Assembly: GCA_036732565.1 (NCBI GenBank)
Contig: DAINCF010000001.1
Span: 1,787-65,786, forward strand
Length of the DNA: 64,000 nt
Reading direction: 5' to 3'
From: Vicinamibacterales bacterium
GTDB taxonomy: Bacteria > Acidobacteriota > Vicinamibacteria > Vicinamibacterales > UBA2999
In this document: piece by piece, positions 4,133 to 44,177 of the stretch
How the letters are laid out: each line of letters begins with the position of its first letter
Position numbering within the stretch: the first letter of the stretch is position 1
Translations under genes and position numbers: made by a program
The notes under the pieces: generated by a model
Seen by the model: only the letters and a program-made list of their open reading frames with translations
Told to the model about the DNA's origin: nothing
Database searches by the model: none

Positions 4133-4137
4133 CGGCG

Positions 4138-26471: not shown

Positions 26472-26796
26472 CGCTTCCTCCTGCGCCACTCAGGACGGAC
26501 GACAGAAGGAAGTTCGCGTGTGCAATTCCCGACGATGCTGGTGAGACTACATACGTCGAGTTCTGGAGTCTTCTGTGAGCGGGTGAGACCAACGTGCTAC
26601 CGCAGCCGACGAGATGGAATCCTGCTTCGCGGTCCGGATCTGGATTCTGCCGTTTCGTCCAAAGCAGTGCGTGTGGCAACAGTACGTCCTTCAACACCGC
26701 GTCGCGAGCCCAAGCCGTTGCAACGCCATTGTTGACGACGATGACGGCAAACGATCGACCGTTCACGTCCGCACGAAATGTCAGTCTGTTCGACAT
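26425..26796 (-). CDS. Hypothetical small protein (tentative)
   Basis: ATG 26796 preceded by GGAGGCGAGTC. The N-terminal ~80 aa (MSNRLTFRADVNGRSFAVIVVNNGVATAWARDAVLKDVLLPHALLW...) look protein-like. The C-terminal tail looks non-coding and overlaps the next gene by 47 nt. Confidence 0.3.
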   Translation of the reverse strand: MSNRLTFRADVNGRSFAVIVVNNGVATAWARDAVLKDVLLPHALLWTKRQNPDPDREAGFHLVGCGSTLVSPAHRRLQNSTYVVSPASSGIAHANFLLSSVLSGAGGSDEAQRAVPDSGGSSH

Positions 26797-29294: not shown

Positions 29295-30104
29295 TCAATC
29301 GAGCTCGAGGGGGAGCGTCTTGTCCAGACGATCGACATCGAGTGACCAGATGCCTGTCTTCAGGAATGGCTCCGCATCGGCGTACTGGATCAGGAGGGCA
29401 TACGACAGCAAGCGGCCGTCCCAGTCGCGCCCGCGGCCGAGCCCCGAGTCGATCTGGGCTACTTCGTCCGGCTTCAGCGCCCATTCTGGGTAGCCGTAGC
29501 TTCCGCTGTGGGCGACGTGTAGCCCCGTCTTCACACTGGAATAGACGACCGCCGCGGCAAGAATCCGTATGGATCCCCGCGATCGGTTGCGGACGCGCAT
29601 CCGCTCGTCAACGAACAGCGCATTGAGCTCCGAGATGGTCGATTCCGCCGCTGCCAGGCGCTGTTGTGCCTGTTGCACGGTAGCGGACAGATCGGCGCGT
29701 GCCTGCCGCTCACGCCACCACCCAAGACCCATGGCGGTGACGAGGGTCAGCAGCACTGCCGAGATGACGCCCGCAACGAGTGTCGATCGGGGAAGCACGT
29801 CGGGCGCGGCCACCGCCTCTTGTCCACGGGCGGTTGGAGCTGTGAATGGTGTCGCATTCATTGCAAGTGCTGGCTCATTTGCGGGAAGGTCGATGTTGCG
29901 ATCGGCCTCTCCTGGTGCGAGGAGCTCGCACGCGTCTCGCAAGTCCTGCAACGCCTTCTGGTAGGTGCGTCGCAGCGTCGGTGTCGGAGCGTTGGTCAGC
30001 CGGATGTGCGTGTCGGTGTGCAGCGCCTGAAACTGTCGGCGGACCTCCGCGCGGGCAGCATCGCGTTGGCATCCGAGGAGGGCCTCAGCCGCTTCGCGTG
30101 TCAT
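29295..30104 (-). CDS. Single-pass membrane protein with an N-terminal J-like domain (HPD replaced by H-I-R) and a ~130-aa extracytoplasmic C-terminal domain
   Basis: EALLGCQRDAARAEVRRQFQALHTDTHIRLTNA...YQKALQDLRDACELL aligns by eye to the J-domain helices II-III. TM segment STLVAGVISAVLLTLVTAMGLGWW. ATGA overlap with the Hsp70 stop. Confidence 0.7.
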   Translation of the reverse strand: MTREAAEALLGCQRDAARAEVRRQFQALHTDTHIRLTNAPTPTLRRTYQKALQDLRDACELLAPGEADRNIDLPANEPALAMNATPFTAPTARGQEAVAAPDVLPRSTLVAGVISAVLLTLVTAMGLGWWRERQARADLSATVQQAQQRLAAAESTISELNALFVDERMRVRNRSRGSIRILAAAVVYSSVKTGLHVAHSGSYGYPEWALKPDEVAQIDSGLGRGRDWDGRLLSYALLIQYADAEPFLKTGIWSLDVDRLDKTLPLELD

Positions 30105-31615
30105 AAATGGTTCACCGGCGTGGCGCGCACTAACGCGTGCTGGCGGGCAAGTGCCGCTGCTGCACTGGCATCGTCGCGCGAAAAGAGCTGCTCGAGCTCG
30201 AGTCCGGACTCGGCATCGTAGGCGCTCACCGCGACCGTAGAGTCGGCGCGCACTTCGATGGTGACGTCGACCGGATAATTGAGTCTCGGTCGTGCCAAGG
30301 GGCCCACCACCAAATCGCCCAAGTAAGTTTCTTGGCCATCGCCTGGCCGAAACTGCACGATCTCGAGCACGATCCGTTCTTGCTCGGCGCGAGTTGTGAA
30401 GAAGGTCCGAGTCGCGCGGCCTGGTAACGGTACGTTCTGGGGGACCACGGCATCGAACGTGACGCGGCCAGTGTGCGGGTCGACGACGCGCACGCCGGTG
30501 GCGTGGCCGCTAACGCCTCGCAGCGTGGGTGGCAGGTCGAGTGCCTCAGCGTCTCCCGACAATTGCAACGCGTGAATAGCCGCCCCGAACGCCACGGCCT
30601 TCCCGGGCTCGTGATAGCGCACACGCTCGGGGAAAAGGCGTTCCATCCGGTCCCGAATCGCTGGCACCATCGACGAACCGCCGACGAGCAATACGTCATC
30701 GATGTCATCGGGTTCGAGGCGGGCCGATCGAACGCATTCGAGCGCCAGCGCCTGACAGCGATCGAGGAGCGGGCCAATCTGTTCGTCGAATGCATACACC
30801 GCGATTCGCACGTCCAGCGGCAAGTCGCCCATCAGCAGGGTGCGCCGGACGACAGGCCGGGTAGTCGCGCAAAGCTCAATCTTGAGTGCCTCTGCTGCGC
30901 GCCGCAGATCCAGCAGCGTACGGGCAGTACTGGACAAACGCGTGCGGAGCCGCTCGTCGCACCCCGACAACAGTAATGCGGCAACCGCGTCGTCGAGTTC
31001 CTTACCCCCGAGATCGGCGACGCCAGCCTTGGACAGCACAGTAAGGCCGGAGCTTTGACAGGCAACCACGGATACGTCGCAGGTGCCCCCGCCCCAGTCG
31101 AACACCAACACGACGCGATCATCTGCTCCAACGGTGGCGCCGTAGTGAAGAGCAGCGGCCACCGGTTCCTCGACCAGATGCATCACCGGCAGATCGGCCA
31201 TCATGGCGGCGGCAATCACCGCTCTCCGCTGCGGGTCCGTGAAGTGTGCAGGAACTGTGATGACCCCACCATCGATCTGGGCATCACCCGATGTCTCTGC
31301 GTCGTAGCGGAGTTTCTTGAGGATGAGAGCCGCGAGCGCTTCCGCGCGCCAACCGGCTCCCCGGGCGTCGAAGCAGATCGGCTCGGCGGTGCCGAGGCTG
31401 CGCTTGAAGTATCGCAGCGCGACGAGATGCGGCTCTTCGTCAAGGAGCGCTTCCGCCGTGCGCCCGACATATGCGGCCTGACTCGCGAAACACACAACCG
31501 ATGGCGTGTGAAACAGGTCCTGCTGCACGCAGTCCGGCAGGAGCAACGGCGTGCCGTCGGCGTTGACGCGGGCCACGAGCGCATAGCTATTGCCCAGATC
31601 GATGCCGATTCTCAT
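30101..31615 (-). CDS. Atypical Hsp70-family ATPase (504 aa; NBD plus beta-sandwich SBD, no helical lid)
   Basis: IGIDLGNSYALVARV, VITVPAHFTDPQRRAVIAAA, EPVAAALHYG, VLVFDWGGGTCDVSVV, LLVGGSSMVPAIR and KAVAFGAAIHA match the Hsp70 NBD signatures. The protein ends about 120 aa after the NBD. Confidence 0.9.
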   Translation of the reverse strand: MRIGIDLGNSYALVARVNADGTPLLLPDCVQQDLFHTPSVVCFASQAAYVGRTAEALLDEEPHLVALRYFKRSLGTAEPICFDARGAGWRAEALAALILKKLRYDAETSGDAQIDGGVITVPAHFTDPQRRAVIAAAMMADLPVMHLVEEPVAAALHYGATVGADDRVVLVFDWGGGTCDVSVVACQSSGLTVLSKAGVADLGGKELDDAVAALLLSGCDERLRTRLSSTARTLLDLRRAAEALKIELCATTRPVVRRTLLMGDLPLDVRIAVYAFDEQIGPLLDRCQALALECVRSARLEPDDIDDVLLVGGSSMVPAIRDRMERLFPERVRYHEPGKAVAFGAAIHALQLSGDAEALDLPPTLRGVSGHATGVRVVDPHTGRVTFDAVVPQNVPLPGRATRTFFTTRAEQERIVLEIVQFRPGDGQETYLGDLVVGPLARPRLNYPVDVTIEVRADSTVAVSAYDAESGLELEQLFSRDDASAAAALARQHALVRATPVNHL

Positions 31616-33240
31616 GACCGTTGTGCCCCGATTTCCCAGCCGGCGATCACCTGTTTCAGCTCGCCGCGCAGCTCCAAGAGGGTCGTTCCGGCGATCTCGC
31701 GGGCGCGAGCCGTCGTGGCGTACCGACGCTCCAGGGCGTCGTAGGCTTGCACCTGGCGCTGCGCTCGCTGGCGGGCGGCATCCGCGTCCGCGGTCTGGCG
31801 GACGACACGCTCTCGAATTGCCTGCTCGAGGTCGGCGATCAACGTTGGTAGTTCATCTTGCAGATGCTGCGCGACGGTCGCCACCCACAAGCGTTGGAAC
31901 TCCTGTAGAATTCGACGTCCTTCTCCCCGTAGGTGCTCACGAGCTCGTTCACGCTCTCGAGCCTCACCCTCCGCCCGCTCCCGCCGGACCGTCCTCATCG
32001 CTTGCAACGCGCCAAGCGAGAGGAGCAGCACGCTGAGCGGCACCATCACGTCACGGAATGAACGGAGGAACGAGAAGCCGAACGCCGACAACAGCATCAC
32101 GACGACCATCTGATAGCGGCGGGCTATGGTGAGATATTCGAAGAACCCCGGCCGTGGCAATTCGCCTTGGTAATGTCTCGAGAAGATCACTGTGATGTCG
32201 AGGATCCGATGCAACCGCCCGTCAGACAGATGCCGAAGCGGCGTTGGGGTCCTCGCGCCTTTGCCAGTTGGCAGTCGATCGGCCGCCTGACGCTGAATCA
32301 CTCGGATCAGATCGTGAGTCGCGCGGAGATCCGCGAGGCCGTGTGCAAGAAGCGCTCGTCGTATGTCTCGCAGAAGGTTCTGCTCATCAGTCGGAGCGAG
32401 CCGAGTTGTCGTTGTGCGAGAGCGCGCTTCGCGGTCGAGGCGGACGACAGCATTGACTGCTTGCTCGACCTCGCTCCACAGCTCGGCCCCTGGCAACGAC
32501 GCCATGTGAAGGCGCTCCTCGAGTCCACGGACGAGCTCCACGGTCTGCCGCTGAAGGGACGTCCGCAGTTCGGCGACCGCCTCGACGCCAACGGCTTGAA
32601 GAGTTGGCGCGGAGCGGTGCTGCAGCAGGCCTCGGCGAGTGCGAAGCGACTGTAAGTCTCGGTGAACGTCGGCGGTGAAGGCAGCCAGCAGCGCTGATGC
32701 AGCGTCAGCGATGGCGACCGCTTGCAAAGCATTCCATGTGGCCGAGTCGACGTGCGACGCCCATGCAGCGACGAGGGTCTCCGCGGTGTGGTCGGCCTCG
32801 AGCCAACAGGTATTCCATGCGTGGTCGGTGAGAAGACGGCGGACCGTGGGAGTCTCGGCAGCGCAGCCGCTTACGAGGACGAACGGCCGTTGGTCAATCG
32901 CGCCTGCGACAGTAGGCGATGGTGGGTCGCTGGGCGCCACCCACGCCAGAATCGGCGCAACCGTCCGGCCTGCCACGGTGACACTCACCGCCGGCGATGC
33001 TAGCCGCAGGTGAATCAGTCGTCCGGCAGCCTCGATGGTGTCAGGTGTCGTCGCCTCAGACGTGAGTATTTCGACCTCGCTGACCGGCGACTCACAGGTC
33101 CGAATGAGGTGCTCGGCTGCGGCCCGCAGTGCCGTTTGGGAGCGCGGACCGCTCTCGGCGACCAGTCGGGAGAACTCTTCCAGCCACTGTCTCAGCGTTC
33201 GCTGTGCTGTCACGGCACCGCCACGGGCGACCGTTCTCAC
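31612..33240 (-). CDS. 542-aa membrane protein, no recognisable domain (TM hairpin plus C-terminal Arg/Glu-rich coiled-coil)
   Basis: GTGA and ATGA overlaps with both neighbours. Hydrophobic hairpin MVVVMLLSAFGFSFL...MVPLSVLLLSLGALQAM. C-terminus RRERAEGEARERERAREHLRGEGRR. Confidence 0.8.
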   Translation of the reverse strand: MRTVARGGAVTAQRTLRQWLEEFSRLVAESGPRSQTALRAAAEHLIRTCESPVSEVEILTSEATTPDTIEAAGRLIHLRLASPAVSVTVAGRTVAPILAWVAPSDPPSPTVAGAIDQRPFVLVSGCAAETPTVRRLLTDHAWNTCWLEADHTAETLVAAWASHVDSATWNALQAVAIADAASALLAAFTADVHRDLQSLRTRRGLLQHRSAPTLQAVGVEAVAELRTSLQRQTVELVRGLEERLHMASLPGAELWSEVEQAVNAVVRLDREARSRTTTTRLAPTDEQNLLRDIRRALLAHGLADLRATHDLIRVIQRQAADRLPTGKGARTPTPLRHLSDGRLHRILDITVIFSRHYQGELPRPGFFEYLTIARRYQMVVVMLLSAFGFSFLRSFRDVMVPLSVLLLSLGALQAMRTVRRERAEGEARERERAREHLRGEGRRILQEFQRLWVATVAQHLQDELPTLIADLEQAIRERVVRQTADADAARQRAQRQVQAYDALERRYATTARAREIAGTTLLELRGELKQVIAGWEIGAQRS

Positions 33241-34364
33241 CGCCGTCCCTCGTCATGACTGGTGACACGCACGCACCGAAAGCCGACGCTGTCGTCGCCC
33301 TGCTCGGGATTCAGGCGCGCGCGGGCGGACGCACGAAGACTAGACGCGATCGAGCGCCATGATCCGCCCCGTGCAACGCGATGGGCCGTGACCGTTGCAT
33401 CGGAGCTGACATACCAACCATCGACCCATTCCCACACGTTGCCTGCCATGTCGTAGAGACCCCAGTCGTTGGGCGCGAACGAGGCTACAGGCGCGGTGTG
33501 TTCCCAGCGATCGGCTGGCGGTGTGCCGAAGCTATTGGCGTGCGCTGTCAGGAATTGATCGCCCCAGGGGTACACAGCATCCACATTGCGGCCGCGCGCC
33601 GCGTACTCCCATTCCGCTTCGGTCGGCAGCCTGGCGCGAATCGAGGCACAGAACTCCTGCGCGTCGGCCCAGCGCGCGTTCACGACAGGCTGGTCGGGTC
33701 GCGTACTCCATGGCGGTTGTGGTGGCGTCGCCCGCCGGCGCGAAGCCGCGAACTCGCTGAACTGTTGCAGCGTCACTTCGGTGCGCATGATGTCGAAAGC
33801 GACGTCGATCGCGACCGCTCGACGAGGGCGCTCATCGGCGAGGCAGCTCGCATCGGTTGGAACACACCCCATCGCCACCGCGCCCGTCCCGACTCTGCGC
33901 CATGGCGTGGTAGCGAATGACTGTGCCCGCTCTTTGATGTCTTCGAGCGCAGCGGCTTCGAGATCGCGAGCCATGGTCTCTGCCGTGACTGTGGCGATGT
34001 CATCCTGCAGATCCAGTCGCACCAGCAGGGCCTGGCTCTCCTCGACGTCTACCGTCAGCTCGCGCCGGACCTTGGCGATTTGGCTCAGGACGATCACGAC
34101 ATGCGAACCGGCTGCGACAGGTATCTCGCGTGGTGTGTCCGCGACCGCCACGCCCGCGTCCTGCCCATCGATCCAGACTCGGCACGGCGCATCGCTGAGA
34201 ATGACGAGGCGACTGGCATGTTCGGCTGGCGGCGGCCCCCGACGCCGCTTCGTCACGTCCTGGACGTTCGGAGCTCGAGGCTTCGGCTTCGGCGGTGCCA
34301 CTTGCTCGGCCAGAAGAGTCGCGGCCATGAGCGTGGCCAGTAGGAACGTCGACAGCGATCGCAC
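33237..34364 (-). CDS. Secreted FGE/SUMF1 (formylglycine-generating-enzyme-fold) domain protein with a PEGA-like N-terminal domain
   Basis: Signal peptide MRSLSTFLLATLMAATLLA. LVILSDAPCRVWIDGQDAG is PEGA-like. RLPTEAEWEYAARG, NVWEWV and RVARGGSW are FGE-sulfatase motifs. Confidence 0.8.
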   Translation of the reverse strand: MRSLSTFLLATLMAATLLAEQVAPPKPKPRAPNVQDVTKRRRGPPPAEHASRLVILSDAPCRVWIDGQDAGVAVADTPREIPVAAGSHVVIVLSQIAKVRRELTVDVEESQALLVRLDLQDDIATVTAETMARDLEAAALEDIKERAQSFATTPWRRVGTGAVAMGCVPTDASCLADERPRRAVAIDVAFDIMRTEVTLQQFSEFAASRRRATPPQPPWSTRPDQPVVNARWADAQEFCASIRARLPTEAEWEYAARGRNVDAVYPWGDQFLTAHANSFGTPPADRWEHTAPVASFAPNDWGLYDMAGNVWEWVDGWYVSSDATVTAHRVARGGSWRSIASSLRASARARLNPEQGDDSVGFRCVRVTSHDEGRR

Positions 34365-34370
34365 AGAGCC

Positions 34371-35519
34371 TCACTTTTGAACCCAATCGCTCACGAGAAA
34401 CGACAGGCCCTGCAGATAGTCATCCGGTGCACAGTCGCGACACTCGAGCTCGACCGCCGCTCGCACGGTCCCATCCTCGACGCCTGTCAATCGGAGCGTG
34501 ATCAAACTGATCGTTCCGGTGGTTCGAAGTGTGCCGAATGCCAAGGCACTTGCGTTCGCCATGCGCCCGAGTTCCGCGGCACTCCGCGAGTCGGTAATGC
34601 CGAAGTTCTGAAACTGCGCCTCTTGAAGCAGCTCTTTGATGCGCTTGCGCTCGACGATCGACAGACCGGCGGCTGACAATTTGACGGCAAGCGCGCTCTC
34701 GAGCATCTCACGCAAGTCGCCCGCTTCCATCTCGAACCCAACTACCGCGACCGGTTGCTGGGCGAGCGCTTCGAGACGCAGTGGTTCGGTGACCTTGACC
34801 GTGAATTCGGCGATGGAGTACGGGTTGGCGCTGAGGTGCCGCTTCGTTCCCCCACTCTCTCCTGTGACCTCAGCGGCATAGAAGACACCGCCGACCGAGA
34901 AGCCACTCTCATACAGGTCGGTTCCCGATCCCCTGGCGAGCGGCGTGAGGTGCTCGAGCTTGCCGCTTCTGGTGTTGTACGCGCGGACTTCGTGACGCCG
35001 AAGCTGTAGTTCTTGGCCAAGCACCCAGGCGTAGTCGCCAGAGGGTGACAGTCCGATCGATTCCGGCTTGAGTATGCCGAGGTCGATTGATTTGATCTCG
35101 GCACCGGACTTCGGATTTCGGACCGACAGCGAGTATTGACGCTGGACTGCCTCAGGCCTCAGGCTTCCCGGGGTGAAGAGTGCGCTCGTCGCGACCGCCT
35201 CTTGAGCGATCGCGATCAGGATCTGCGACCGGCCGCGATTGATCGCGGCCAGCCGCGCTCGGGTCACCCCGCCTGCGATCGGCACTCGGTACAACTCGCG
35301 CCCCGTCTGAGCTCGTGCGATCCAGTGCTCGGTCACGAGATATCGCTCGTCGCCGCGAGCATCGTCGAACACACATGGGTCCCGGCGTACTTCGCATGCT
35401 TGCAGACGCTCACCCGACGGCTGTCGGCCAGCCCTGACAATCAGATCCCCCGCAGAAGCGGAGTGAGAGTGGAGACAGACCGCTACTGCCAACGCCTGAA
35501 CGCCGGTGCGAATGTCCAT
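34371..35519 (-). CDS. Secreted protein: unknown N-terminal ~230 aa plus a C-terminal CsgG/FlgO/TolB-N-like module
   Basis: Signal-like N-terminus. The C-terminus VAVVGFEMEAGD...SIVERKRIKELLQEAQFQNFG...LGRMANASALAFGTL follows the CsgG-like pattern. This is by-eye recognition. Confidence 0.65.
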   Translation of the reverse strand: MDIRTGVQALAVAVCLHSHSASAGDLIVRAGRQPSGERLQACEVRRDPCVFDDARGDERYLVTEHWIARAQTGRELYRVPIAGGVTRARLAAINRGRSQILIAIAQEAVATSALFTPGSLRPEAVQRQYSLSVRNPKSGAEIKSIDLGILKPESIGLSPSGDYAWVLGQELQLRRHEVRAYNTRSGKLEHLTPLARGSGTDLYESGFSVGGVFYAAEVTGESGGTKRHLSANPYSIAEFTVKVTEPLRLEALAQQPVAVVGFEMEAGDLREMLESALAVKLSAAGLSIVERKRIKELLQEAQFQNFGITDSRSAAELGRMANASALAFGTLRTTGTISLITLRLTGVEDGTVRAAVELECRDCAPDDYLQGLSFLVSDWVQK

Positions 35520-35537
35520 GGTCTGCCTCCCTTCCCT

Positions 35538-36101
35538 CTAGAACAGCACTCGCAGACCCACGCGCGTTCGCAGGGATCCGCTCGAGCCGAGGGTATCGAC
35601 CGGTCCGCCGTACGCTCCTTCGACGAAAAGAGAAGCGTTCTCTTTGATCGCGGTCTGAACGCCAAGTTTTCCGAGGACCTCGGGCTTGATGTCGACGCCT
35701 TCCGTCTGACTCAGCGGTGTACTGACCTCACCGCCGAAGTACGCGCTCGATGCCTTTTGCGGCGTGAAGTAGAAAGCGGCGCTACCGTTTGTGTAGAAGA
35801 GAGGTGTCGACCCCCGCTTGACCGTTCCGCTGCCGCTGAGGCCGAACGACAGCACGAAGCGGTTGGTGACGAACCGACCGAAGTCAACGGCCCCGAAGAT
35901 GTTGGTCGATGTCGACGTTCCGCCCTCGAAGCCGCCGACACCCTCGGTGCTTGAAATCTGTGTAAACGTTGCAAAACTGAGACTCAGTTGCTTCGCGCCC
36001 TTGCGCCCGACGGTACGTGCCCCCTCGGCCGACTGGCCGAATGCAGGGGCAGCCGCGACGCTGACGAAAAGAGCAATCAAGACCGGCAGATACTTCCGCA
36101 T
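35538..36101 (-). CDS. Small outer-membrane beta-barrel protein
   Basis: MRKYLPVLIALFVSVAAAPAFGQ signal (GGAGG SD; the ORF extends to 36122). Alternating beta-strand pattern and a C-terminal ...GLRVLF. Confidence 0.75.
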   Translation of the reverse strand: MRKYLPVLIALFVSVAAAPAFGQSAEGARTVGRKGAKQLSLSFATFTQISSTEGVGGFEGGTSTSTNIFGAVDFGRFVTNRFVLSFGLSGSGTVKRGSTPLFYTNGSAAFYFTPQKASSAYFGGEVSTPLSQTEGVDIKPEVLGKLGVQTAIKENASLFVEGAYGGPVDTLGSSGSLRTRVGLRVLF

Positions 36102-36142
36102 GTTGGACCTCCGTGTGCTCACGCGTTGATGGGTGCGAACGC

Positions 36143-36625
36143 CTAGAAACGCGAAACGCGGCGGCGTTCGATCTCCTTGACCAACTGCTCGCCCTTGATG
36201 CTGATGCGCACGCGATAGCGCGTGCTGTTGGGCTCGAAGCCGGCCGAGTCGATGTCATAGTTGCGAATCACGGCATTCACGCTGGTCTCGACGACGCTCC
36301 TCACGTCTTGGTTGTTCATCACCATCGTGTTGCCGCGAACTTCGGATTGAACCTTCTGTGCCAGGTCGGCTTGCGCGAGACTGAGCGCCGACTGACGTGC
36401 CAACCCTTCGTTCTTGTGATCGAAGATGCCTTCGCCGCCAATCACCGTGGTTTCGAACACGCGGCGCAGCTCGCTGAGAATGCGATCGTCTTTCCGGAGG
36501 CTTTCGTCGGCGACCGCGCCGCCGGGTGTGTAGACGGTGACTTTCTCCTGAGTGCTGGCGCACCCGGTAGCGCATGCGAGGGTCAGAACCGCCGCCACTT
36601 CTCTCCACCAACTCTTCGTCCTCAT
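36143..36625 (-). CDS. Lipoprotein, LPP20/FlgP-like (tentative family)
   Basis: Lipobox region AAVLTLACATGCAST. The pattern ARQSALSLAQADLAQKVQSEVRGNTMV...YRVRISIK resembles the LPP20 family. Confidence 0.6.
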   Translation of the reverse strand: MRTKSWWREVAAVLTLACATGCASTQEKVTVYTPGGAVADESLRKDDRILSELRRVFETTVIGGEGIFDHKNEGLARQSALSLAQADLAQKVQSEVRGNTMVMNNQDVRSVVETSVNAVIRNYDIDSAGFEPNSTRYRVRISIKGEQLVKEIERRRVSRF

Positions 36626-36653
36626 GACTGCCTCCTACGGTTGGATTGAGCTC

Positions 36654-37988
36654 TCACATCACGGTCATGCGGACGATGAACTTGTCCGCGCTCACTAGTT
36701 GCACTGGCCGTCCGGCCGCCTGAATACAGGTCGCCACGAGCTCGTCTTGCGGCAGCAGGACGTAGCCGGACAGCATCTCGAGTTCCGCCTGTGGGTGACT
36801 GGCGGTCGGCACGCTCGCAAATCGCACCGAATCGATGCCTTCGAGAGTTTCGAGACCAGCCTTCAGCCGTTGCGCGATCGAGAGGTCGACGTTCGCGAAC
36901 GTGACGCGCGTAACTCGCGGCCGGGAGGCGAGGATGCTCGGAATCTTCCAAGCCAGCGCGGCTGCGAACTCGGACGCGACGCCTTGCAGCGAAGATGTGA
37001 TGGCGCCGAGCGCGCTGGTATGCGCCTTCGTCACGCTGCGGCTGAAGGCCTCGATGATGTAACCGTTCGACACCACCATCGCTTTCGCTGAGGCGACGGT
37101 CGTTGCCGAGGCGAACTCCACGTCTTGCGGTTTGATTCGCTGCCAGGACAACTGCACGTTGCCTGTGAGGAGCATGTCAGCGCCGACCGCTCGCGCTACT
37201 GCGACCGCATCCAACGTGATGCCCTGACGTGCCCGTTCGAGCTGCGCCGCATTCACCGATCCGGCGGCCATCACGTCGTCGGAAGTCATCACCGGGTATC
37301 CGAATGCACCGAAGGCTTGGGCGATGGCGGCCTCGGCATTGCGCATCGTGCCCGAGGTCGTAGAGGCCGGAGTGTGTCCCCATGGCGTCGATCCGGACGC
37401 GCTCTGCGTCTCCGGCGGAGGTGCATTGAAGGCCGCCTCGGGAAGCAACACCAACAGTCGAGGGTTGCCCATGACGTCGAGATAGAGTTTGAGACCGTCG
37501 AGCTCACTGGCGGCCTCGCCGGTCGACTGCACGACCATCGCGTCGATGCGCACCTCGTACTTCGGCGGCGTCTCCTCGACGAGGCCTTCTCCCACAAGCT
37601 CGTACGACTTGACGAACCCTTTCGAGCGAGACGCGACGATGTCGCTGACTGCCCGAACGTTGCGCACGAGCGTCAGACGGCCGATCTCGACTCCGGCGCC
37701 GCGTGCCACGGCTTCGGCGTAGGCTGACTGGAGCGCTGCCTGACGAGCGGCGGACACATTGCCTCCAAACACCGTGGCCGATCCGATGACGAACACTCTT
37801 TCCGCTGGCCGAGGCTCGTTCGCGAGCGCTCGGACTTCGCCGACGCCCTGTCGCCCGGGCTGGGGCTCGACTCCCTGCACCGTCGGCGTACGAGGTGGCA
37901 CGGGTGTGACTTGTCCCGCAGCGGGAGAGGTGGTGCCGAGCAGTGTTGGCACCAGCAGCGTTCCAAAGAGCAGAGCGATCTTGATCAT
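36654..37988 (-). CDS. Secreted multi-domain protein, FlgT-like architecture (LPP20-like N-terminal domain plus a TolB-N/CsgG-like middle domain); tentative
   Basis: Signal peptide MIKIALLFGTLLVPTLLG. The N-terminal domain is AARQAALQSAYAEAVARGAGVEI...YEVRIDAMV. The middle domain is PRLLVLLPE...ARAVGADMLLTGNV. Confidence 0.6.
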   Translation of the reverse strand: MIKIALLFGTLLVPTLLGTTSPAAGQVTPVPPRTPTVQGVEPQPGRQGVGEVRALANEPRPAERVFVIGSATVFGGNVSAARQAALQSAYAEAVARGAGVEIGRLTLVRNVRAVSDIVASRSKGFVKSYELVGEGLVEETPPKYEVRIDAMVVQSTGEAASELDGLKLYLDVMGNPRLLVLLPEAAFNAPPPETQSASGSTPWGHTPASTTSGTMRNAEAAIAQAFGAFGYPVMTSDDVMAAGSVNAAQLERARQGITLDAVAVARAVGADMLLTGNVQLSWQRIKPQDVEFASATTVASAKAMVVSNGYIIEAFSRSVTKAHTSALGAITSSLQGVASEFAAALAWKIPSILASRPRVTRVTFANVDLSIAQRLKAGLETLEGIDSVRFASVPTASHPQAELEMLSGYVLLPQDELVATCIQAAGRPVQLVSADKFIVRMTVM

Positions 37989-38012
37989 GAGGTGGCGCCA
38001 CTGAAGGTGTCG

Positions 38013-38420
38013 TCAACGAGAGCAATCGCCGCTGTTGCATGTGAGATTGATCTCCATGCAACTGCCTGCGCTCACCGTGTGCGTACCCGACCAGCTTCCA
38101 CCGGTGTTGGTGCGCGCGGTGTAGCTGTGCGGGCCAACATTGAGCGTGGTGGCGACGCGGGCATCCCCATCGTTGACACAGGAGACGCCATTGCCGGCTT
38201 CGTAGTACCTGCGGAGCGTGCCGATGTAGGCGTCGTCGACATAGATGTCGATGGTCGACCAGCCGCGGTTTGCGTTCGTCGAGAACGCGAGCCGGCCGGT
38301 CTGAGGTGTCGTCGTGCTCGGGCCGACCGGGTTGATGGTGTTGCCATCCTGATCGGTGGTGCTGCTGCACGCCGACGCGAGGATGGCCGCCACCAAGAGC
38401 ATTGAAGCAAACAAGCGCAT
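38013..38420 (-). CDS. Small Cys-containing lipoprotein, unknown function
   Basis: MRLFASMLLVAAILASACSS (lipobox-like). 135 aa with 5 further Cys. Confidence 0.7.
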   Translation of the reverse strand: MRLFASMLLVAAILASACSSTTDQDGNTINPVGPSTTTPQTGRLAFSTNANRGWSTIDIYVDDAYIGTLRRYYEAGNGVSCVNDGDARVATTLNVGPHSYTARTNTGGSWSGTHTVSAGSCMEINLTCNSGDCSR

Positions 38421-38483: not shown

Positions 38484-39227
38484 CTAGTGAGATTCGAACA
38501 TCGACGTTCCGGTCACGCCCTGTTCCTCGAGGTTACGGCGCAAGGAACGCAGCATGCGATCGAATCGGCGATACAGGACTTTCGGATCGGTTCCGAACGT
38601 GTTCGCGAGGTCTTGCACCGTTCGCCGATCTCGAAAGCGCAGCTGAATCAGGTGGAGGTCCCCGACCGGCAGCCGCTCCAAGGCGGCGGAGAGGCTGGCA
38701 CGAGCGCGTAACCTCCGGCAGCGTCGCTCGCGTGCCGCCAGCGGATCGGCAAATGGCGTTTCACCAACTTCGCCAACGACGTCGATCGACACTCTGCGGC
38801 GTCGTTGGCGGGGCGGCAGGAGCTGTTGCAGCTGCCGAAGGTCAGCGCGTGAGGGTGCGTTCGCGCCTCGGCTGACAATCTCGATCGCTTCGTCCGCGGT
38901 GAATCCATCTCGCGAGACCAGGCGCTCGAGGCGAATGGCGGGTTCCCCTAGCCTGGTCGCCGCCACTGTCGGCCGCCACTTCCCATATGTGCTGTTCTGC
39001 CAATCAAGCAGCATTCGCAGGACCACGACATTGAGGTAACGCCTCAGTGAGCTTCGACCGTCGAAGCGGCTAAACACGTCGTATTCGCGCTCGACGACGC
39101 GCAAATGGACGGTTTGCGCGAAATCTTCCGCGTCTTCTCGGGACATCCGTCGGGAACGGGCAACTTCTCGAATCACGCAAGAAAGGAGCGCCATTTGGTC
39201 CGGTAACGGGGAGATTGGTGTGCTCAT
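38484..39227 (-). CDS. Sigma-70-family (ECF-like) sigma factor with a ~90-aa insertion between regions 2 and 4; first gene of the operon
   Basis: Region 2: EDAEDFAQTVHLRVVEREYDVF...LNVVVLRMLLDW. Region 4: LPVGDLHLIQLRFRDRRTVQDLANTFG. ATG 39227 has a GAGGG SD and a TGATG junction with the upstream small ORF. The ORF track start is GTG 39260. Confidence 0.75.
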   Translation of the reverse strand: MSTPISPLPDQMALLSCVIREVARSRRMSREDAEDFAQTVHLRVVEREYDVFSRFDGRSSLRRYLNVVVLRMLLDWQNSTYGKWRPTVAATRLGEPAIRLERLVSRDGFTADEAIEIVSRGANAPSRADLRQLQQLLPPRQRRRRVSIDVVGEVGETPFADPLAARERRCRRLRARASLSAALERLPVGDLHLIQLRFRDRRTVQDLANTFGTDPKVLYRRFDRMLRSLRRNLEEQGVTGTSMFESH

Positions 39228-39394
39228 CACGCCCTCGCTGGTGTGGGGTTTCGCCAACACTCCATAAACGGAGACGCAGTGAAAACCGAACAGCTGGCGG
39301 TGCGGCGAGCGCAGTCGACAGACTCCTGGGCAGGTGCCGTCCGCCGTTGTCGTGGAGAGAACGTGCAGAGGATCGGAGCGAATCGAAACACCAT
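39227..39394 (-). CDS. Candidate 55-codon upstream ORF translationally coupled to the sigma gene (tentative)
   Basis: AGGAGG sits 7 nt before ATG 39394. Its TGA stop shares its A with the sigma ATG (TGATG). Peptide: MVFRFAPILCTFSPRQRRTAPAQESVDCARRTASCSVFTASPFMECWRNPTPARA. Hand-counted GC3 is only about 64%, so coding status is unsure. Confidence 0.3.
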   Translation of the reverse strand: MVFRFAPILCTFSPRQRRTAPAQESVDCARRTASCSVFTASPFMECWRNPTPARA

Positions 39395-39518
39395 CGTGCG
39401 ACCTCCTACCCTCAGACGCGCGAGACGCCCGTGAAGTAGATCGTGTGGTGTCGCGACGCCTGACACCCTGAGGTCGTGTCCCGACCGTGAATGAAGCGAA
39501 GGGGCCCTCGTGGCGTGC

Positions 39519-39550
39519 GGAACTGCTTGGGTTTATCGGCGATCGCGTAC
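39519..39550 (+). promoter_or_regulatory. Candidate ECF-type promoter (GGAAC ... CGCGTA) upstream of the ECF sigma gene at 39594
   Basis: GGAAC at 39519-39523, followed 16-20 nt later by GCGAT/CGCGTA. Position is 45-75 nt before the start. Motif-only call. Confidence 0.25.
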
Positions 39551-39593
39551 GACGGTCTTCCCTGTATTATTCGAGCCAACAGTCCTCCACCGC

Positions 39594-40163
39594 ATGGACC
39601 TAGAGTCGTCGTTCGAGCTGATTGAACGTGCGCAAGCCGGCGATTCGTCGGCCCTCGAACGCCTGCTCGCGCGCTATCGCCCACGCCTTCAGCGATGGGC
39701 CAGTGGGCGCTTGCCCCGTTATGCCCGCGACATGACCGACACGGACGATCTCGTGCAGGAGGCGTTGATCGGCACGTTCAAGAACTTCAAGGCATTCGAG
39801 CACCGGGGTGAATGGGCGCTACAGGGATACCTACGGCGTGCGGTGACCAACCGCATTCGGGACGAACTGCGTAGGGTCGAAGCGCAGCCCAGACGTGAGG
39901 AGTTGCGAGACGACACGCCGGGTAGCGACCGCTCGCCCCTCGAACTGGCCATGGGTCGTGAGGCGTTCGGCAGGTACGACACGGCGCTGTCGCTCTTGGA
40001 GGGCGTCGAACGCGAAGCCGTGATTGCCAGAATCGAATTGGGCTGCAGCTACCAAGAGATCGCAGCGCTCGCCGACAGGGCAAGCGCGGATGCCGCGCGG
40101 ATGTTGGTGGCACGAGCCTTGGCCAAGCTGGCGACAGCAATGGCTGGGAATTCTCACGCCTAG
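39594..40163 (+). CDS. ECF-type RNA polymerase sigma factor
   Basis: MDLESSFELIERAQAGDSSALERLLARYRPRLQRWASGRL, DDLVQEALIGTFKNFKAF and region 4 EREAVIARIELGCSYQEIAAL. The ORF track starts at GTG 39510. Confidence 0.85.
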   Translation: MDLESSFELIERAQAGDSSALERLLARYRPRLQRWASGRLPRYARDMTDTDDLVQEALIGTFKNFKAFEHRGEWALQGYLRRAVTNRIRDELRRVEAQPRREELRDDTPGSDRSPLELAMGREAFGRYDTALSLLEGVEREAVIARIELGCSYQEIAALADRASADAARMLVARALAKLATAMAGNSHA

Positions 40164-40217
40164 GCCGTCTATTGTGTGTCCTGGTTGAGCTGTTATCATC
40201 TGCGCGGAACAGAGCTG

Positions 40218-42713
40218 ATGTTGTCTCGTGATGCCACGTTGCTGACTCTCGCAGAGGCTGTTGCTGACGGCTCCGACATCGACTGGCTGCGTGCGGAGTC
40301 CAGCGCGGATGGCGTCAGCCAACTGGAGATCGTGCAGCAGCTCCGGCTCCTGGCGAGTCTCGGTGCATCGAGTCGTGCGACCGCGGCGCAGTGGGGACCA
40401 CTCCAGCTGCGAAGCGAGATTGGCGGGGGCACCTTCGGAACCGTCTACCGGGCCTGGGATCCTCGCCTCGAACGCGAAGTCGCGTTGAAGCTGCTCCATC
40501 CGGAACCTGGAACCCCCTCGAGCCCTTCGACAGTCGTCAAAGAAGCGCGGCTCCTCGCCCAGGTGGACAGGCATCCGAGTGTTGTCAAGGTCTACGGCGC
40601 AGACGTTTTCGATGGCAGGGTCGGTATCTGGATGGAGTTCGTAACCGGGCGAACCCTAAAGCAGATCATCGAGGAGCAAGGACCGTTCGGGGCCGAGGAA
40701 GCCGCTCTGATAGGTCGTGATTTGTGTGGAGCGCTGGCAGCGGTGCACAAGCTTGGCTTCGTTCACCGGGATGTCAAGGCGCAGAACGTGATGCGGGAAG
40801 CCGGCGGGCGGATTGTCCTGATGGATTTCGGCGCAGGACACGCAGCCGCCGATCGCGAACTGCGCCCGCTGGCCGGCACGCCGCTGTACTTGGCACCCGA
40901 GCTGCTCGGCGGAGCGACCGCGAGTCCACAGTCCGATCTATACAGCCTTGGGGTACTTCTGTACTACCTGGTCACCGGGCAGTTCCCAGTGACAGCGACA
41001 TCGCTGTCCGAATTGCGTGCGCGGCACGCGGAAGGCAGCCGCCAACTGTTACGCGACGCGCGGCCGGACTTGCCTGATTGGTTCGTGCGAGCGGTCGATC
41101 AAGCAACCGCGCCGATGCCGTCCGACCGCCCACAGAGTGCCGGGGCGCTGGAAGCGCTCTTGGAGCCAGGGTCACGGCTCGCCTCGGGACCTACTTCTGT
41201 CGTTCGACCGCTCTCGCGGCGATTAGCGCCTACTTGGGCACTGGCAGCCGTGTGTGTCCTGACGCTCTTAGCTCTGATCGGGCTGGCGCTCTTCACGATG
41301 CAGGGAGGCACGACTCTAGGTGTTGTACCCAAAGTGGCCGTTCTTCCGATTCTCAACTTGTCTGGACAGCCCGACTGGATCGCCGACGCTTTCGCCGACG
41401 ACCTGATGACCACCTTCACCCTCGTCGATGGCGTGCAACTGGCGGGTTGGACATCGGCCTCTGCCGCAGCTCGTCGGCCTGGCGCGAGTCCGACTGAAAT
41501 CGCAACGGCGCTCGGCGTTGAGTGGTTGATTGAGGGATCGGTCCGCCGAGGAGAATCCAGCGACGGTGTGTTGGTCAATCTGAGACTTCTGGATCGCGCC
41601 GGGTCGGTGCGATGGAGCAATTCGTTCAGCAAAGCCGTTCGCGACCTGACCACTGTTCCCCGGGAGGCCGTGACCGGTGTGGCTTCGGCAATAGGCATAG
41701 CTCTCCCCGTCGATGCACCGGTTCGCACGGGCCTTCCGCACAGTCAGAATGACGGGGCTCGAGCTGCCTACCTGGAGGCCAGATCGCTCCTTCGGAACGA
41801 CACGGTCGCGAACTACAAAGCCGCGCGCGGCTACCTCGAGCGCGCGATCGCGCTCGATTCTCAGTACGCGATGGCACACGCGACTTTGGGAAGATGCCTC
41901 ATCGATCTTCAAGTGAACGGACTCGTGCCGACGAGCGAAGCGATCCCTCTGGCACGCGAGCACATCAACCGGGCGATCGCTCTCGATGGGCGCCTGTCAG
42001 AGCCCCACACACGGTTGGCGGACCTGCGCCTCTACTATGACCGTGACTGGTCTGGAGCTGGCGATTCATATCGGAACGCCATCAGCCTCAATCCGAACGA
42101 TATCCTTGCTCGCATCCAGTACTCGAAGTACCTCGCCGCGCTCGGACGCGTAAACGAGGCGGTCGTTCAAGCCAGGACTGCTGAAGATCTCGATCCAGTT
42201 TCTCCGGCTACCGGGAACGTTGCGATGATGCTTTACTACGCGCGTCGCCATGACGAGTCGGTGGTGGCTTTCCAGCGGCGTCTTCGAGCCTCACCTGGCT
42301 TGACGCAAGTGCATTTCAGTATCGGCCGCGTCTATGCGGCCAAGGGTGCGTTCGGTGACGCCCTTCGTGAGTTGCGGCGAGCCATTGAAATTGGCGGCGG
42401 CGCGACGGCCAGCCCTCTCTACCTTGCGGAATTGGCACGTACCCATGCGCAGGCGGGCGACGAGTCAGAAGCGAGGCTCCAACTTTCGACCCTGGAACGC
42501 GCGAATCCACAACTGAGCGCTAATCTCCGCGCCTACTTCGGATATGTTTACGCGGCGCTGGGAGATAAGGACAAAGCCTTCGAGCTTCTGCAGGCTGCTG
42601 TGGACGAACAGGCGGCCGTTCTGATGTGGGCGCAGGTAGACCCACGATTGGATGGCCTGCGTGACGATGCTCGATATCCACAACTCCTACGCAGTATTGC
42701 GCTTGTCAAGTGA
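40218..42713 (+). CDS. Ser/Thr protein kinase with a TM segment, a TolB-N/CsgG-like module and TPR repeats (paralog of 21245-23875)
   Basis: GGGTFGTVYRAWD, VALKLL, HRDVKAQNV, DFGAG and APE. TM segment WALAAVCVLTLLALIGLALF. VAVLPILNLSGQPDW...EWLIEGSV, then TPR repeats. The ORF track starts at GTG 40176. Confidence 0.9.
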   Translation: MLSRDATLLTLAEAVADGSDIDWLRAESSADGVSQLEIVQQLRLLASLGASSRATAAQWGPLQLRSEIGGGTFGTVYRAWDPRLEREVALKLLHPEPGTPSSPSTVVKEARLLAQVDRHPSVVKVYGADVFDGRVGIWMEFVTGRTLKQIIEEQGPFGAEEAALIGRDLCGALAAVHKLGFVHRDVKAQNVMREAGGRIVLMDFGAGHAAADRELRPLAGTPLYLAPELLGGATASPQSDLYSLGVLLYYLVTGQFPVTATSLSELRARHAEGSRQLLRDARPDLPDWFVRAVDQATAPMPSDRPQSAGALEALLEPGSRLASGPTSVVRPLSRRLAPTWALAAVCVLTLLALIGLALFTMQGGTTLGVVPKVAVLPILNLSGQPDWIADAFADDLMTTFTLVDGVQLAGWTSASAAARRPGASPTEIATALGVEWLIEGSVRRGESSDGVLVNLRLLDRAGSVRWSNSFSKAVRDLTTVPREAVTGVASAIGIALPVDAPVRTGLPHSQNDGARAAYLEARSLLRNDTVANYKAARGYLERAIALDSQYAMAHATLGRCLIDLQVNGLVPTSEAIPLAREHINRAIALDGRLSEPHTRLADLRLYYDRDWSGAGDSYRNAISLNPNDILARIQYSKYLAALGRVNEAVVQARTAEDLDPVSPATGNVAMMLYYARRHDESVVAFQRRLRASPGLTQVHFSIGRVYAAKGAFGDALRELRRAIEIGGGATASPLYLAELARTHAQAGDESEARLQLSTLERANPQLSANLRAYFGYVYAALGDKDKAFELLQAAVDEQAAVLMWAQVDPRLDGLRDDARYPQLLRSIALVK

Positions 42714-42783: not shown

Positions 42784-43011
42784 ATGGCTGTGACGGTGAA
42801 TCTGCACAAGGACAAAGCAAAGCTGGAGGCGAAGATTGACGCCCTTCGAGATCTGGACACTAAGGAGGCTGAGCGCATGGCGAAGGCACTCGAACGCCTC
42901 TTGAAAGTCATGAAGGGCGTGTGCGTTGTCATGGGAAAAAAAGACTCCAGTATGGCCCGAGTGTTTCGACGCGAGGATAAGTCGAACAAGCCCAAACCAT
43001 CCAATCGATGA
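42784..43011 (+). CDS. 75-aa Lys-rich helical small protein; possible precursor or partner of the downstream SagB-type dehydrogenase
   Basis: GAGGAGG sits 5 nt before ATG 42784. ATGA overlap with the next gene. Hand count gives 120 G+C of 228 nt (~53%). Confidence 0.6.
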   Translation: MAVTVNLHKDKAKLEAKIDALRDLDTKEAERMAKALERLLKVMKGVCVVMGKKDSSMARVFRREDKSNKPKPSNR

Positions 43012-44177
43012 AGGTGTCGCGCAACCGGGTTCGCCGCTCACCCCACTTGGTGTCCTATTGGGATGGTGGGCGGTTGACCCTGATGAATTTCTGCACTGGT
43101 GTCGCCGCTGAAGCGACGCCAGTAGCCATCGAAGTCTTGTCCTTTTTCGGCCGATGGCGGCCACGAGCCGAACTGCGACGCGCGATGCCGTCGGCTCCTC
43201 CTGATCTGCTTGAGCTCGTCGTCAATCGCTTGATCGAGTGTTCATTCTTGGAGGGGCAGGGCAGCAGGAGTCGTGCGGAACCCACCTTGAAGAAATGGAA
43301 ACATTGGAACCCCGCGGCAGGCTTCTTCCATTACGCGACTCGTGATGTGCCCTACGTTGATCCGGCCGCGAAGAAACCTTCGCTGGCTTCGACCCGTGTG
43401 CGGCGTCCGCCGCTGGTCAAGCGGCTCTCCGGGGTAGCGACCACCCACCTGCCCCGATCGTATGCACTGGACTCGTTTACCAACACCTTGTTGGGGCGCC
43501 GAACCTGGCGGGATTTTGGCGACGGTCCTCTCACCAAGGACGAGCTCGCAACGCTATTGAACCTCACCGGAGGCGTGCAACGCTGGGAGATGACACTGGA
43601 GGGCCGCGCCCCATTGAAAACATCTCCGTCGGGCGGGGCCACACATCCAGGCGAACTGTACGTGCTGGCTTTGAATGTGAAGGGGCTGAAACGCGGCATC
43701 TATCACTATCGGGCTGACAATCATACGTTGGAACTAGTGCGCTCGCGCGGAAGTCGCGCCGATGTAGAACGCTACCTGCCGACTCAGTGGTGGTACCGCC
43801 GGGCCGCGGCTCTCGTCTTCTTTACCGCAGTCTTCGCGAGGAGCATGTGGCGCTATCGGTCGGCTCGGGCGTATCGAGCCTTACTGATCGAGGCCGGGCA
43901 TCAATGCCAGACGTTCTGCCTCACGGCGACTTGGCTTGGCTTGGCCCCCTTTTGCTCGATGGCCCTGGCCGACTCCGCAATCGAAGATGATTTGGGAATC
44001 TCGAGCGACACGGAGTCGGTGTTGTATGCAGCGGGCGTTGGGCGGCGCCCCGCTGGAGTGGAATGGGCGCCCGCGCCTCGCGATGCGGACTGGCTCGATG
44101 GACCCTCGAAGGTGGATCACAGACCATTGGCCTCTAGCGGCAACGATTCCAAGCGAAGAGCCAAGGGCACACGGTAG
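43008..44177 (+). CDS. SagB/ThcOx-family dehydrogenase (nitroreductase fold) with a ~110-aa N-terminal extension
   Basis: RRTWRDFGDGPLTKDELATLLN, PSGGATHPGELYVLA, IYHYRADNHTLE and LIEAGHQCQTFCLTATWLGLA are SagB-type signatures. The N-terminus (HLVSYWDGGRLTLMNFCTG...EVLSFF...LVVNRLIECSFLE) looks like a PqqD/RRE domain. Confidence 0.8.
   Translation: MKVSRNRVRRSPHLVSYWDGGRLTLMNFCTGVAAEATPVAIEVLSFFGRWRPRAELRRAMPSAPPDLLELVVNRLIECSFLEGQGSRSRAEPTLKKWKHWNPAAGFFHYATRDVPYVDPAAKKPSLASTRVRRPPLVKRLSGVATTHLPRSYALDSFTNTLLGRRTWRDFGDGPLTKDELATLLNLTGGVQRWEMTLEGRAPLKTSPSGGATHPGELYVLALNVKGLKRGIYHYRADNHTLELVRSRGSRADVERYLPTQWWYRRAAALVFFTAVFARSMWRYRSARAYRALLIEAGHQCQTFCLTATWLGLAPFCSMALADSAIEDDLGISSDTESVLYAAGVGRRPAGVEWAPAPRDADWLDGPSKVDHRPLASSGNDSKRRAKGTR

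Follow-up and report, generated by a model that had tools for sequence, protein, structure and literature searches.

The 64,000-nt stretch of DNA analysed here, referred to as the window, belongs to a Vicinamibacterales bacterium (UBA2999; assembly GCA_036732565.1, contig DAINCF010000001.1, positions 1,787–65,786, forward strand) and has a GC content of approximately 65%. It carries an array of 12 minus-strand open reading frames (ORFs) arranged head to tail from 39260 down to 25845, with gaps of 6–63 bp between neighbours, 4 bp overlaps at three junctions and one gap of 405 bp. Six consecutive ORFs of this array, separated by 6–41 bp, encode exported proteins: a 135-amino-acid (aa) lipoprotein (38013–38420), a 444-aa FlgT-like periplasmic protein (36654–37988), a 160-aa FlgP/LPP20-like lipoprotein (36143–36625), a small putative outer-membrane β-barrel (35538–36101), a 382-aa periplasmic protein (34371–35519) and a 375-aa exported protein with the fold of formylglycine-generating enzyme (FGE; 33237–34364). 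Such a run of six exported proteins had been claimed in the original prediction made for this DNA; all six ORFs exist, on the minus strand and with the coordinates given there, each with a legible N-terminal export signal. As read from the sequence, these are signal-peptidase-I type signals in the 444-, 187-, 382- and 375-aa proteins and lipoboxes in the 135-aa (LASAC-S) and 160-aa (TLAC/ATGC) proteins. Homologies, export signals, synteny and modularity identify the genes as a conserved non-flagellar cell-envelope module. That the window is devoid of flagellar, pilus and curli genes had also been predicted and was borne out: a Pfam scan of 39 window ORFs returned carbohydrate metabolism genes, kinases, regulators and housekeeping genes, with none of the former among them. 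Flagellar, curli and Pel genes are absent from the window and from related loci with readable flanks, the curli genes csgA, csgB, csgE and csgF from the window and related loci, and pel genes from the scanned window ORFs. Cultured Vicinamibacteria are described as non-motile; a literature search on the motility of Vicinamibacter returned nothing applicable.

The 444-aa protein comprises an SHS2/FlgT_N domain (residues 63–154), a TolB-N/CsgG-like domain (approximately 159–355) and a C-terminal domain (358–443). Pfam FlgT_N scores below threshold on the window protein itself (E = 1e-3, 19.8 bits against a cutoff of 28.8) and is matched by 26 of its 29 relatives, with a best E-value of 3.7e-8. 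An AlphaFold2 (AF2) model computed from the alignment of relatives has a predicted local distance difference test score (pLDDT) of 78 and a predicted template-modelling score (pTM) of 0.69, and its best Foldseek matches in the PDB are both Vibrio FlgT, in the LPHT ring (8z5n; E = 1.4e-9) and in a crystal structure (3w1e; E = 1.1e-8), over about 400 aligned columns. The next matches, HpaA, CsgG, GNA1162, PelC and LpoB, all fall on the middle domain, which is TolB-N/CsgG-like at the fold level only. The proposed succession of an LPP20-like N-terminal domain and a TolB-N/CsgG-like middle domain is thus upheld in the form of an FlgT-like protein, on the FlgT_N matches of the relatives and the top rank of FlgT in Foldseek. 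The global template-modelling (TM) score of the model to FlgT is 0.28–0.34, a low value that we attribute to a different domain orientation.

A word-indexed search for relatives of this protein assembled a small family of 31 proteins, all of them from metagenomes or metagenome-assembled genomes (MAGs), and the family profile retrieved 1567 matches at E ≤ 1e-3, 76 of them at E ≤ 1e-30, from 1.84 billion cluster representatives. Pfam FlgT_M and FlgT_C had no match in the 29 relatives or in the sampled wider family. The sampled members of about 390 aa carry FlgT_N, in one case together with CsgG, and none carries FlgT_M or FlgT_C; judged by these sequences, canonical FlgT looks like one branch of a wider, mostly uncharacterized family that combines SHS2 and TolB-N-like domains. 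A 25-residue insert (98–123) in the SHS2 domain of the window protein belongs to the most conserved stretches of the alignment, with Gly99, Ile102, Gly103 and Val111 invariant, and is modelled at a pLDDT of about 35. Strong conservation combined with low model confidence is the pattern expected of a segment that becomes ordered only in an oligomer. Ring formation in this family goes together with an insert that follows the SHS2 helix and precedes strand 2 (PMC12222027), and both proposed SHS2-type domains of the window, those of the 444-aa and 160-aa proteins, possess an insert there.

In the 160-aa lipoprotein the insert spans residues 93–119, the position of the FlgP hairpin, and aligns almost without gaps and at matching length with the ring-forming β-hairpin of FlgP. 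The lipobox cysteine is invariant in eight relatives. Alignment of a profile of these eight with the N-terminal domain of the 444-aa family by hhalign gave a probability of 95% (E = 2e-8), and the sole PDB profile match of the 160-aa family is Campylobacter jejuni FlgP, represented by the 171-aa chain named 'Lipoprotein, putative' in 9HMF (E = 0.043). This entry is the C. jejuni periplasmic scaffold model, and its three chains with this sequence fit the FlgP trimer described (PMC12222027). Pfam LPP20 does not recognize the family: the window protein has no Pfam match at all, and the best LPP20 E-value, 0.35 in one of the eight relatives, is not significant. The claimed LPP20-like lipoprotein is therefore sustained as a lipoprotein, and as LPP20-like only indirectly, through the hhalign and FlgP matches.

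The 382-aa protein consists of a β-propeller-like domain (residues 26–245) followed by a domain of the PelC/TolB-N/CsgG superfamily (256–380); its AF2 model has a pLDDT of 80.6. The C-terminal domain is an α/β unit of about 125 residues that matches only positions 40–97 of the 210-position Pfam CsgG profile, and its top Foldseek matches are chains of the PelC dodecamer (E = 1.4e-6; target-normalized TM score of 0.61–0.65; approximately 20% identity). CsgG is matched by 24 of 26 relatives (best E = 1.6e-9), LpoB by ten and FlgO by seven; on the window protein CsgG reaches 14.5 bits against a threshold of 20.8. The CsgG-like C-terminal module that had been proposed accordingly holds at the superfamily level, with PelC as the closest structure. 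A comparison of the 382-aa and 444-aa families by hhalign was weak (E = 0.011; probability 4%) and aligned their equivalent TolB-N-like regions. Two cysteine pairs, Cys42/Cys49 and Cys360/Cys363, are invariant in the 382-aa family and fit a periplasmic location. The neighbouring putative barrel protein (187 aa from an ATG, or 194 aa from an upstream GTG) starts with a signal peptide and ends in a conserved GLRVLF; its mature part of some 165 residues contains about eight amphipathic segments. These sequence features agree with the suggestion of a β-barrel ending in Phe, for which profile support was not obtained.

The assignment of an FGE/SUMF1 domain to the 375-aa protein was confirmed by Pfam FGE-sulfatase (E = 7e-49, 167 bits), while the PEGA domain ascribed to the same protein was not confirmed: its N-terminal region is β-rich, and PEGA gave no Pfam match at E ≤ 1 with the full protein or at E ≤ 0.5 with residues 1–160 or with the orthologue in a related locus (L004; related loci are designated by L numbers). 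Both catalytic cysteines of human FGE are missing. In the alignment of GGSW---RSIASS with the human sequence GGSYMCHRSYCYR, Cys336 falls in the gap and Cys341 is replaced; by its sequence, the protein keeps the FGE fold but is catalytically dead. Among NCBIfam models PorK/GldK matches it best, at 95.9 bits against a cutoff of 350, and PorK chains were matched at 3e-20. PorK, too, is devoid of the catalytic cysteines and uses its fold as the hub for docking within a 33-fold ring (PMC12421860). An FGE/C-type-lectin protein diversified by a diversity-generating retroelement (DGR) was considered and rejected, the sole repeat family between 24 and 48 kb of the window being a 21-nt array inside the 797-aa gene described below.

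A further connection between these components comes from L011, a locus with a GC content of 0.52. Directly after its FlgT-like and FlgP-like genes, a 407-aa protein (3717–4940) fuses a PelC/LpoB/CsgG-like domain to FGE-sulfatase, and upstream (504–1601) lies a 365-aa protein with an LpoB/CsgG-like domain and a C-terminal region ending in Phe. At the level of sequence, the fusion is evidence of the Rosetta-stone type that links the TolB-N-like and FGE components. Across loci, the envelope set comprises the sigma factor, the lipoprotein, the FlgT-like and FlgP-like proteins, the small outer-membrane protein, the PelC-like protein and sometimes the FGE-fold protein. In nearly every locus, over a GC range of 0.38–0.66 and including contigs of GC 0.38 and 0.52, the FlgT-like gene has the FlgP-like gene as its neighbour, and the 160-aa gene follows the FlgT-like gene in all loci that extend past the latter, except L001–3 and the truncated L017. 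The small barrel and PelC-like genes accompany this pair in most Acidobacteriota-like contigs, and the two occur together in L001, L004, L005, L007, L008, L017 and L018. Genes for Ser/Thr kinases and a Crp-type regulator often lie nearby. Among species-representative genomes, only one Vicinamibacterales MAG contains a close relative, and the taxonomy rests on this MAG and on names attached to relatives of the Hsp70 described below.

The array begins with an extracytoplasmic function (ECF) type sigma factor of 258 aa (38484–39260), which matches NCBIfam TIGR02937 sigma70-ECF with 58.4 bits against a cutoff of 42.9 and whose homologues adjoin the envelope module in L004, L008, L013, L017 and L018. 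The 135-aa lipoprotein that follows has no Pfam match and belongs to no known family, and is kept in L004, L008, L013 and L018; it had been credited with six cysteines, and a count from the sequence gives five. At the other end of the array, 405 bp downstream of the 797-aa gene, lies an exported 214-aa protein with an HELGH motif (25845–26489) and no Pfam family. Its homologues adjoin the envelope module in L008, L009 and L018, and it may serve the module as an accessory resembling a metalloprotease. Divergent from the array on the plus strand (39510–42713), Pfam identifies an ECF sigma factor (217 aa) and a Ser/Thr kinase with tetratricopeptide (TPR) repeats (845 aa; 40176–42713). The two are likely regulators; the pair is found next to the array also in L004 and in the JGI 3300043331 contig, and a Ser/Thr kinase flanks the envelope module in L001, L005, L008 and L018. 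The window contains a second large Ser/Thr kinase with TPR repeats (876 aa; 21245–23875, minus strand). Downstream of the divergent pair (43008–47354, plus strand) follow a gene of the nitroreductase family (389 aa) and an ORF of 994 aa that neither Pfam nor PADLOC matches; a nitroreductase and a protein of about 1070 aa lie beside the array in the JGI 3300043331 contig in the same way. The GC content from 24 to 48 kb of the window is 0.60–0.65, and in the region of about 25800–47400 the third-position GC content (GC3) is 0.67–0.80 in the operon genes as against 0.83–0.89 in flanking genes, which may reflect horizontal acquisition or different expression. A promoter consensus scan returned no promoters, and terminator-like sites were at or below shuffled expectation; both consensus scans are uninformative.

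Between the FGE gene and the HELGH gene the array contains four genes that form an Hsp70 module, in which neighbouring ORFs overlap by 4 bp. The first encodes a 542-aa protein (31612–33240) with a predicted hydrophobic hairpin at approximately 375–415, overlapping by 4 bp with the genes on both sides; it has no Pfam family, and a PDB sequence search returned nothing useful. The second encodes a truncated Hsp70 of 504 aa (30101–31615; Pfam HSP70, E = 9.6e-66) that covers profile positions 2–492 of 599 and so probably lacks the C-terminal lid. It scores far below the DnaK and HscA equivalog cutoffs, which argues for a distinct lid-less subfamily; the subfamily has at least 228 relatives at E ≤ 1e-60, those listed being mostly 505–509 aa, and the few with a source name derive from Vicinamibacteria or Thermoanaerobaculia. 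The third protein, of 269 aa (29295–30104), is bitopic, with a J-like adaptor (residues 1–65), a transmembrane helix (approximately 109–127) and a C-terminal domain predicted to be periplasmic. Pfam DnaJ does not match it, and a PDB sequence search returned nothing useful; a profile of the adaptor domain gave weak PDB matches (E = 0.06–1), 13 of 20 of which are J-domains aligned over helices I–II. In place of the HPD motif the window protein has HTD, and the HPD motif is not conserved in relatives. Several relatives share the succession of adaptor, transmembrane helix and conserved C-terminal domain, predicted to be periplasmic, and the 65-aa adaptor recurs in the middle or at the C-terminus of FHA proteins encoded beside the same Hsp70 subfamily. 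The fourth gene encodes a cytoplasmic protein of 797 aa (26895–29288) rich in Ala (23%), Gln (12%) and Glu (12%), with a seven-residue (21-nt) tandem repeat, a self-identity of 0.54 at period 7 and homologues in L004 and L019. Within this gene, at 27469–28300, lie at least 33 copies of the 21-nt unit, encoding AEQ(Q/H)Axx heptads; the array creates a spurious 376-aa ORF on the opposite strand (27429–28559) with high GC3.

The envelope set and the Hsp70 module are separable. The envelope set occurs without Hsp70 in six distinct locus types with a visible flank (L001–3, L005, L008/L009, L011, L017 and L018), and no Hsp70 gene was found in the little flank present in L007, L010 and L012. Conversely, the Hsp70 occurs without envelope genes in four unrelated loci of other Acidobacteriota, L014 (8070–13340), L015 (7835–13652), L016 (7775–21518) and L019 (1–4409). 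In each of them a homologue of the 542-aa protein (540–710 aa, with a predicted hydrophobic hairpin) comes before it; such homologues lie directly upstream of Hsp70 in L004 as well. The genes that follow Hsp70 are variable and encode FHA proteins, a kinase–caspase fusion, a Sel1–caspase protein, decapeptide-repeat proteins and apolipoprotein-like proteins. The full order of envelope genes followed by the FGE, 542-aa, Hsp70, 269-aa and heptad-repeat genes is confined to relatives of at least 75% identity (L004/L006 and the JGI 3300043331 contig), the 35.7-kb JGI contig being probably a third case of joined modules. We conclude that the two were joined, and translationally coupled, in one lineage. 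The idea that the envelope proteins serve the cytoplasmic and inner-membrane genes of the operon fits only the closest relatives; elsewhere the modules occur apart. The Hsp70 module looks like an undescribed membrane-associated Hsp70 system of Vicinamibacteria and Thermoanaerobaculia: targeted literature searches found no description of such a system, and searches on HscC/DjlC-type systems found nothing applicable. Of the two modules, this may be the more novel one. Conflict systems that combine GAP1, a DO-GTPase and Hsp70 possess GTPase and GAP1 components (PMC7159879); this assignment was rejected because no array protein matched either required component, as was that of a defence system, since PADLOC had no match for nine proteins.

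What the envelope module might build is suggested by the company that its proteins keep. Four of the six belong to superfamilies whose characterized members (FlgT, FlgP, PelC/CsgG and PorK) contribute subunits to large periplasmic rings associated with the outer membrane. Together with the inserts in the SHS2 domains, this makes a ring or cage a reasonable proposal, and the insert between the SHS2 helix and strand 2 is the best specific argument for a ring beyond family resemblances. Control by ECF sigma factors and kinases suggests in addition that the structure is induced or regulated. Our tentatively preferred reading, which we regard as possible rather than probable, is an outer-membrane-associated periplasmic ring scaffold under ECF-sigma control that has secondarily become coupled to a membrane Hsp70 system. 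In such a scaffold, the lipoprotein and the barrel would anchor the assembly to the outer membrane on its inner side, and the conserved insert would let the two SHS2-type domains oligomerize laterally, in the manner of FlgP and FlgT in flagellar disks. Further tiers or surfaces for docking could come from the TolB-N/PelC-like domains and from the FGE-fold protein, on the model of the PelC and PorK rings. Activity of the ECF sigma factor would lead to production of a periplasmic ring or disk associated with the outer membrane. In this lineage only, the four-gene Hsp70 module (hairpin protein, truncated Hsp70, bitopic protein and heptad-repeat protein) would have joined the operon, and the bitopic 269-aa protein, as the obvious candidate link, could connect the periplasmic assembly to cytoplasmic ATPase activity. 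Taken further, the locus might encode a free-standing, non-flagellar counterpart of the flagellar H-ring/basal disk, situated beneath the outer membrane, composed of FlgT-like, FlgP-like, PelC-like and PorK-like subunits and coupled through the bitopic J-like protein to the Hsp70 ATPase as a chaperone-driven trans-envelope machine, a proposal that we consider improbable. The ring, cage or channel envisaged at the outset remains reasonable as a ring or cage and finds no support as a CsgG-type channel: a TolB-N-like domain of about 125 aa in the 382-aa protein has no room for the CsgG hairpins, and the predicted barrel has about eight strands. The family calls behind it, once examined by profile and structure searches, mostly stand at the superfamily or fold level, the exceptions being PEGA and the profile support for the barrel.

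Several observations weigh against a ring scaffold of this kind. Assembly into a complex, the geometry of a ring, coupling to Hsp70 and any physiological role are all inferred here from sequences, gene order and models of single proteins. The window proteins themselves fall below the Pfam thresholds for FlgT_N, CsgG and FlgO, the FlgP match of the 160-aa family is marginal, and the C-terminal domain of the 444-aa protein is predicted to be ferredoxin-like, of the β-α-β-β-α-β type, without a match to FlgT_C. The 187-aa protein has no Pfam or PDB match and only a weak match to the TP0733 outer-membrane protein family (E = 0.012). PelC and PorK are lipoproteins, which the 382-aa and 375-aa proteins are not. 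The evidence for coupling to Hsp70 consists of operon structure in three or four closely related contigs. Finally, ring formation is not known for many proteins of these superfamilies, among them LpoB, Lpp20 and GNA1162.

This last point belongs equally to the alternative that survives best, which we judge unlikely, if by no means negligible: that the proteins are loosely cooperating factors of envelope homeostasis, LpoB-like, Tol–Pal-like or stress lipoproteins, which share an ECF regulon and form no single ring complex. The LpoB matches agree with it, since they occur in ten of the 26 relatives of the 382-aa protein and in both TolB-N-like proteins of L011, as do the naming of one relative as 'TolB-like protein' by JGI and the flanking ECF sigma factors, Crp-type regulator and Ser/Thr kinases, which are typical of stress regulons. 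A loose regulon does not account well for the strict adjacency of the FlgT-like and FlgP-like genes across distant taxa, which together with the fusion of PelC-like and FGE domains points to physical interaction, or for the retention of the ring-associated insert in both SHS2 domains, and no peptidoglycan synthase or Tol gene was seen in any locus.

It is more doubtful that the whole array constitutes an Hsp70-centred trans-envelope signalling or conflict system, with the envelope and FGE/C-type-lectin-fold proteins as its periplasmic sensor or effector set. The constancy of the pair formed by the 542-aa protein and Hsp70 amid varying downstream partners, the 65-aa adaptor domain common to different partners and the translational coupling of the window genes would all be expected of such a system, and FGE-fold domains are recurrent variable components of NTPase-centred conflict systems (PMC7159879). 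The envelope module, however, is found far more often without any Hsp70 gene, which indicates that its function is independent of Hsp70. The window contains no GTPase, MoxR, vWA, caspase or nuclease, PADLOC matched no array protein and the FGE gene has no repeat of the DGR type beside it.

It appears very unlikely that the proteins export a polymer or amyloid across the outer membrane in the way of PelBC or CsgG/CsgF, with the PelC/CsgG-like protein and the barrel as the conduit. PelC and CsgG are indeed among the best fold and profile matches and the barrel gene adjoins the PelC-like gene, but the TolB-N-like domain leaves no space for the transmembrane hairpins of CsgG, a barrel of about 165 mature residues and eight strands is too small for a pore, and neither the window nor related loci contain genes for a glycosyltransferase, a polysaccharide synthase, a curli subunit or a PelB-like TPR-porin. 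Least likely of all is that the proteins are normal accessories of a flagellum (H-ring or basal-disk proteins) whose locus lies in another part of the genome: FlgT, FlgP and FlgO are the best-named relatives, but neither the 64-kb window nor any related locus with a readable flank contains a flagellar gene, Pfam FlgT_M and FlgT_C are unmatched and the partners (FGE-fold protein, propeller–PelC protein and Hsp70) are not flagellar.

On the improbable reading of a free-standing ring organelle, this organelle might be akin to an older module that supplied the accessory disks of flagella. The FlgP/FlgT/FlgO disks and the PorK ring of the T9SS (type IX secretion system) are textbook evolutionary add-ons of unclear origin, and a conserved cluster that unites relatives of all these ring builders, outside any flagellar context and across distant bacterial groups, may represent an ancestral or parallel outer-membrane scaffold of the sort that supplied such parts. 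Acidobacteriota are an abundant and poorly studied soil phylum, in which the module offers a defined target for cryo-electron tomography and genetics.

Several known systems can be compared with the module. NCBIfam LipL46 of Leptospira matches residues 60–283 of the 444-aa protein, that is, its N-terminal and middle domains (E = 2.6e-10), but at 39.5 bits against an equivalog cutoff of 400, and LipL46 is itself a lipoprotein; no literature linking LipL46 with FlgT was found. Clusters of the Neisseria GNA1162 (DUF799)/CsgG-like/LPP20 type are approached by a more distant relative (P0029; 39% identity) that adjoins GNA1162-like/LpoB and CsgG genes; the window differs from the GNA1162 operon triad in having no GNA1162-family gene and in its composition of FlgT-like, propeller–PelC and pseudo-FGE proteins and a sigma factor. 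CsgG is a lipoprotein whose transmembrane hairpins form a 36-strand pore, and PelC forms the dodecameric outer-membrane lipoprotein ring of Pel export. The 382-aa protein differs from both in lacking a lipobox; it departs from CsgG in its domain of about 125 aa without transmembrane hairpins, for which PelC is the best structural match, and from PelC in its N-terminal β-propeller-like domain and the absence of pel genes nearby. With PorK/GldK of the T9SS the 375-aa protein shares an FGE fold devoid of catalytic cysteines and export to the periplasm; it has a signal-peptidase-I type signal without Cys instead of a lipobox and an acidobacterial host, whereas PorK occurs in Bacteroidota. Its compact FGE domain of about 210 aa suggests that the PorK insertion domains are missing, and no PorL, PorM, PorN or other T9SS families were found among the scanned window ORFs. 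The 160-aa protein resembles Campylobacter FlgP and Helicobacter Lpp20 as a small lipoprotein with a predicted succession of helix, insert and two strands, and differs from them in that its gene lies beside an FlgT-like gene in a non-flagellar cluster without the partners FlgQ, PflA and PflB. The 444-aa protein has 13% identity to Vibrio FlgT (3W1E, 8Z5N), is about 60–70 residues longer, has no match to Pfam FlgT_M or FlgT_C, has a C-terminal domain predicted to be ferredoxin-like and stands in no flagellar context, but like FlgT it is a Sec-exported periplasmic protein in which an SHS2/FlgT_N domain with an insert after the helix is followed by a TolB-N-like domain.

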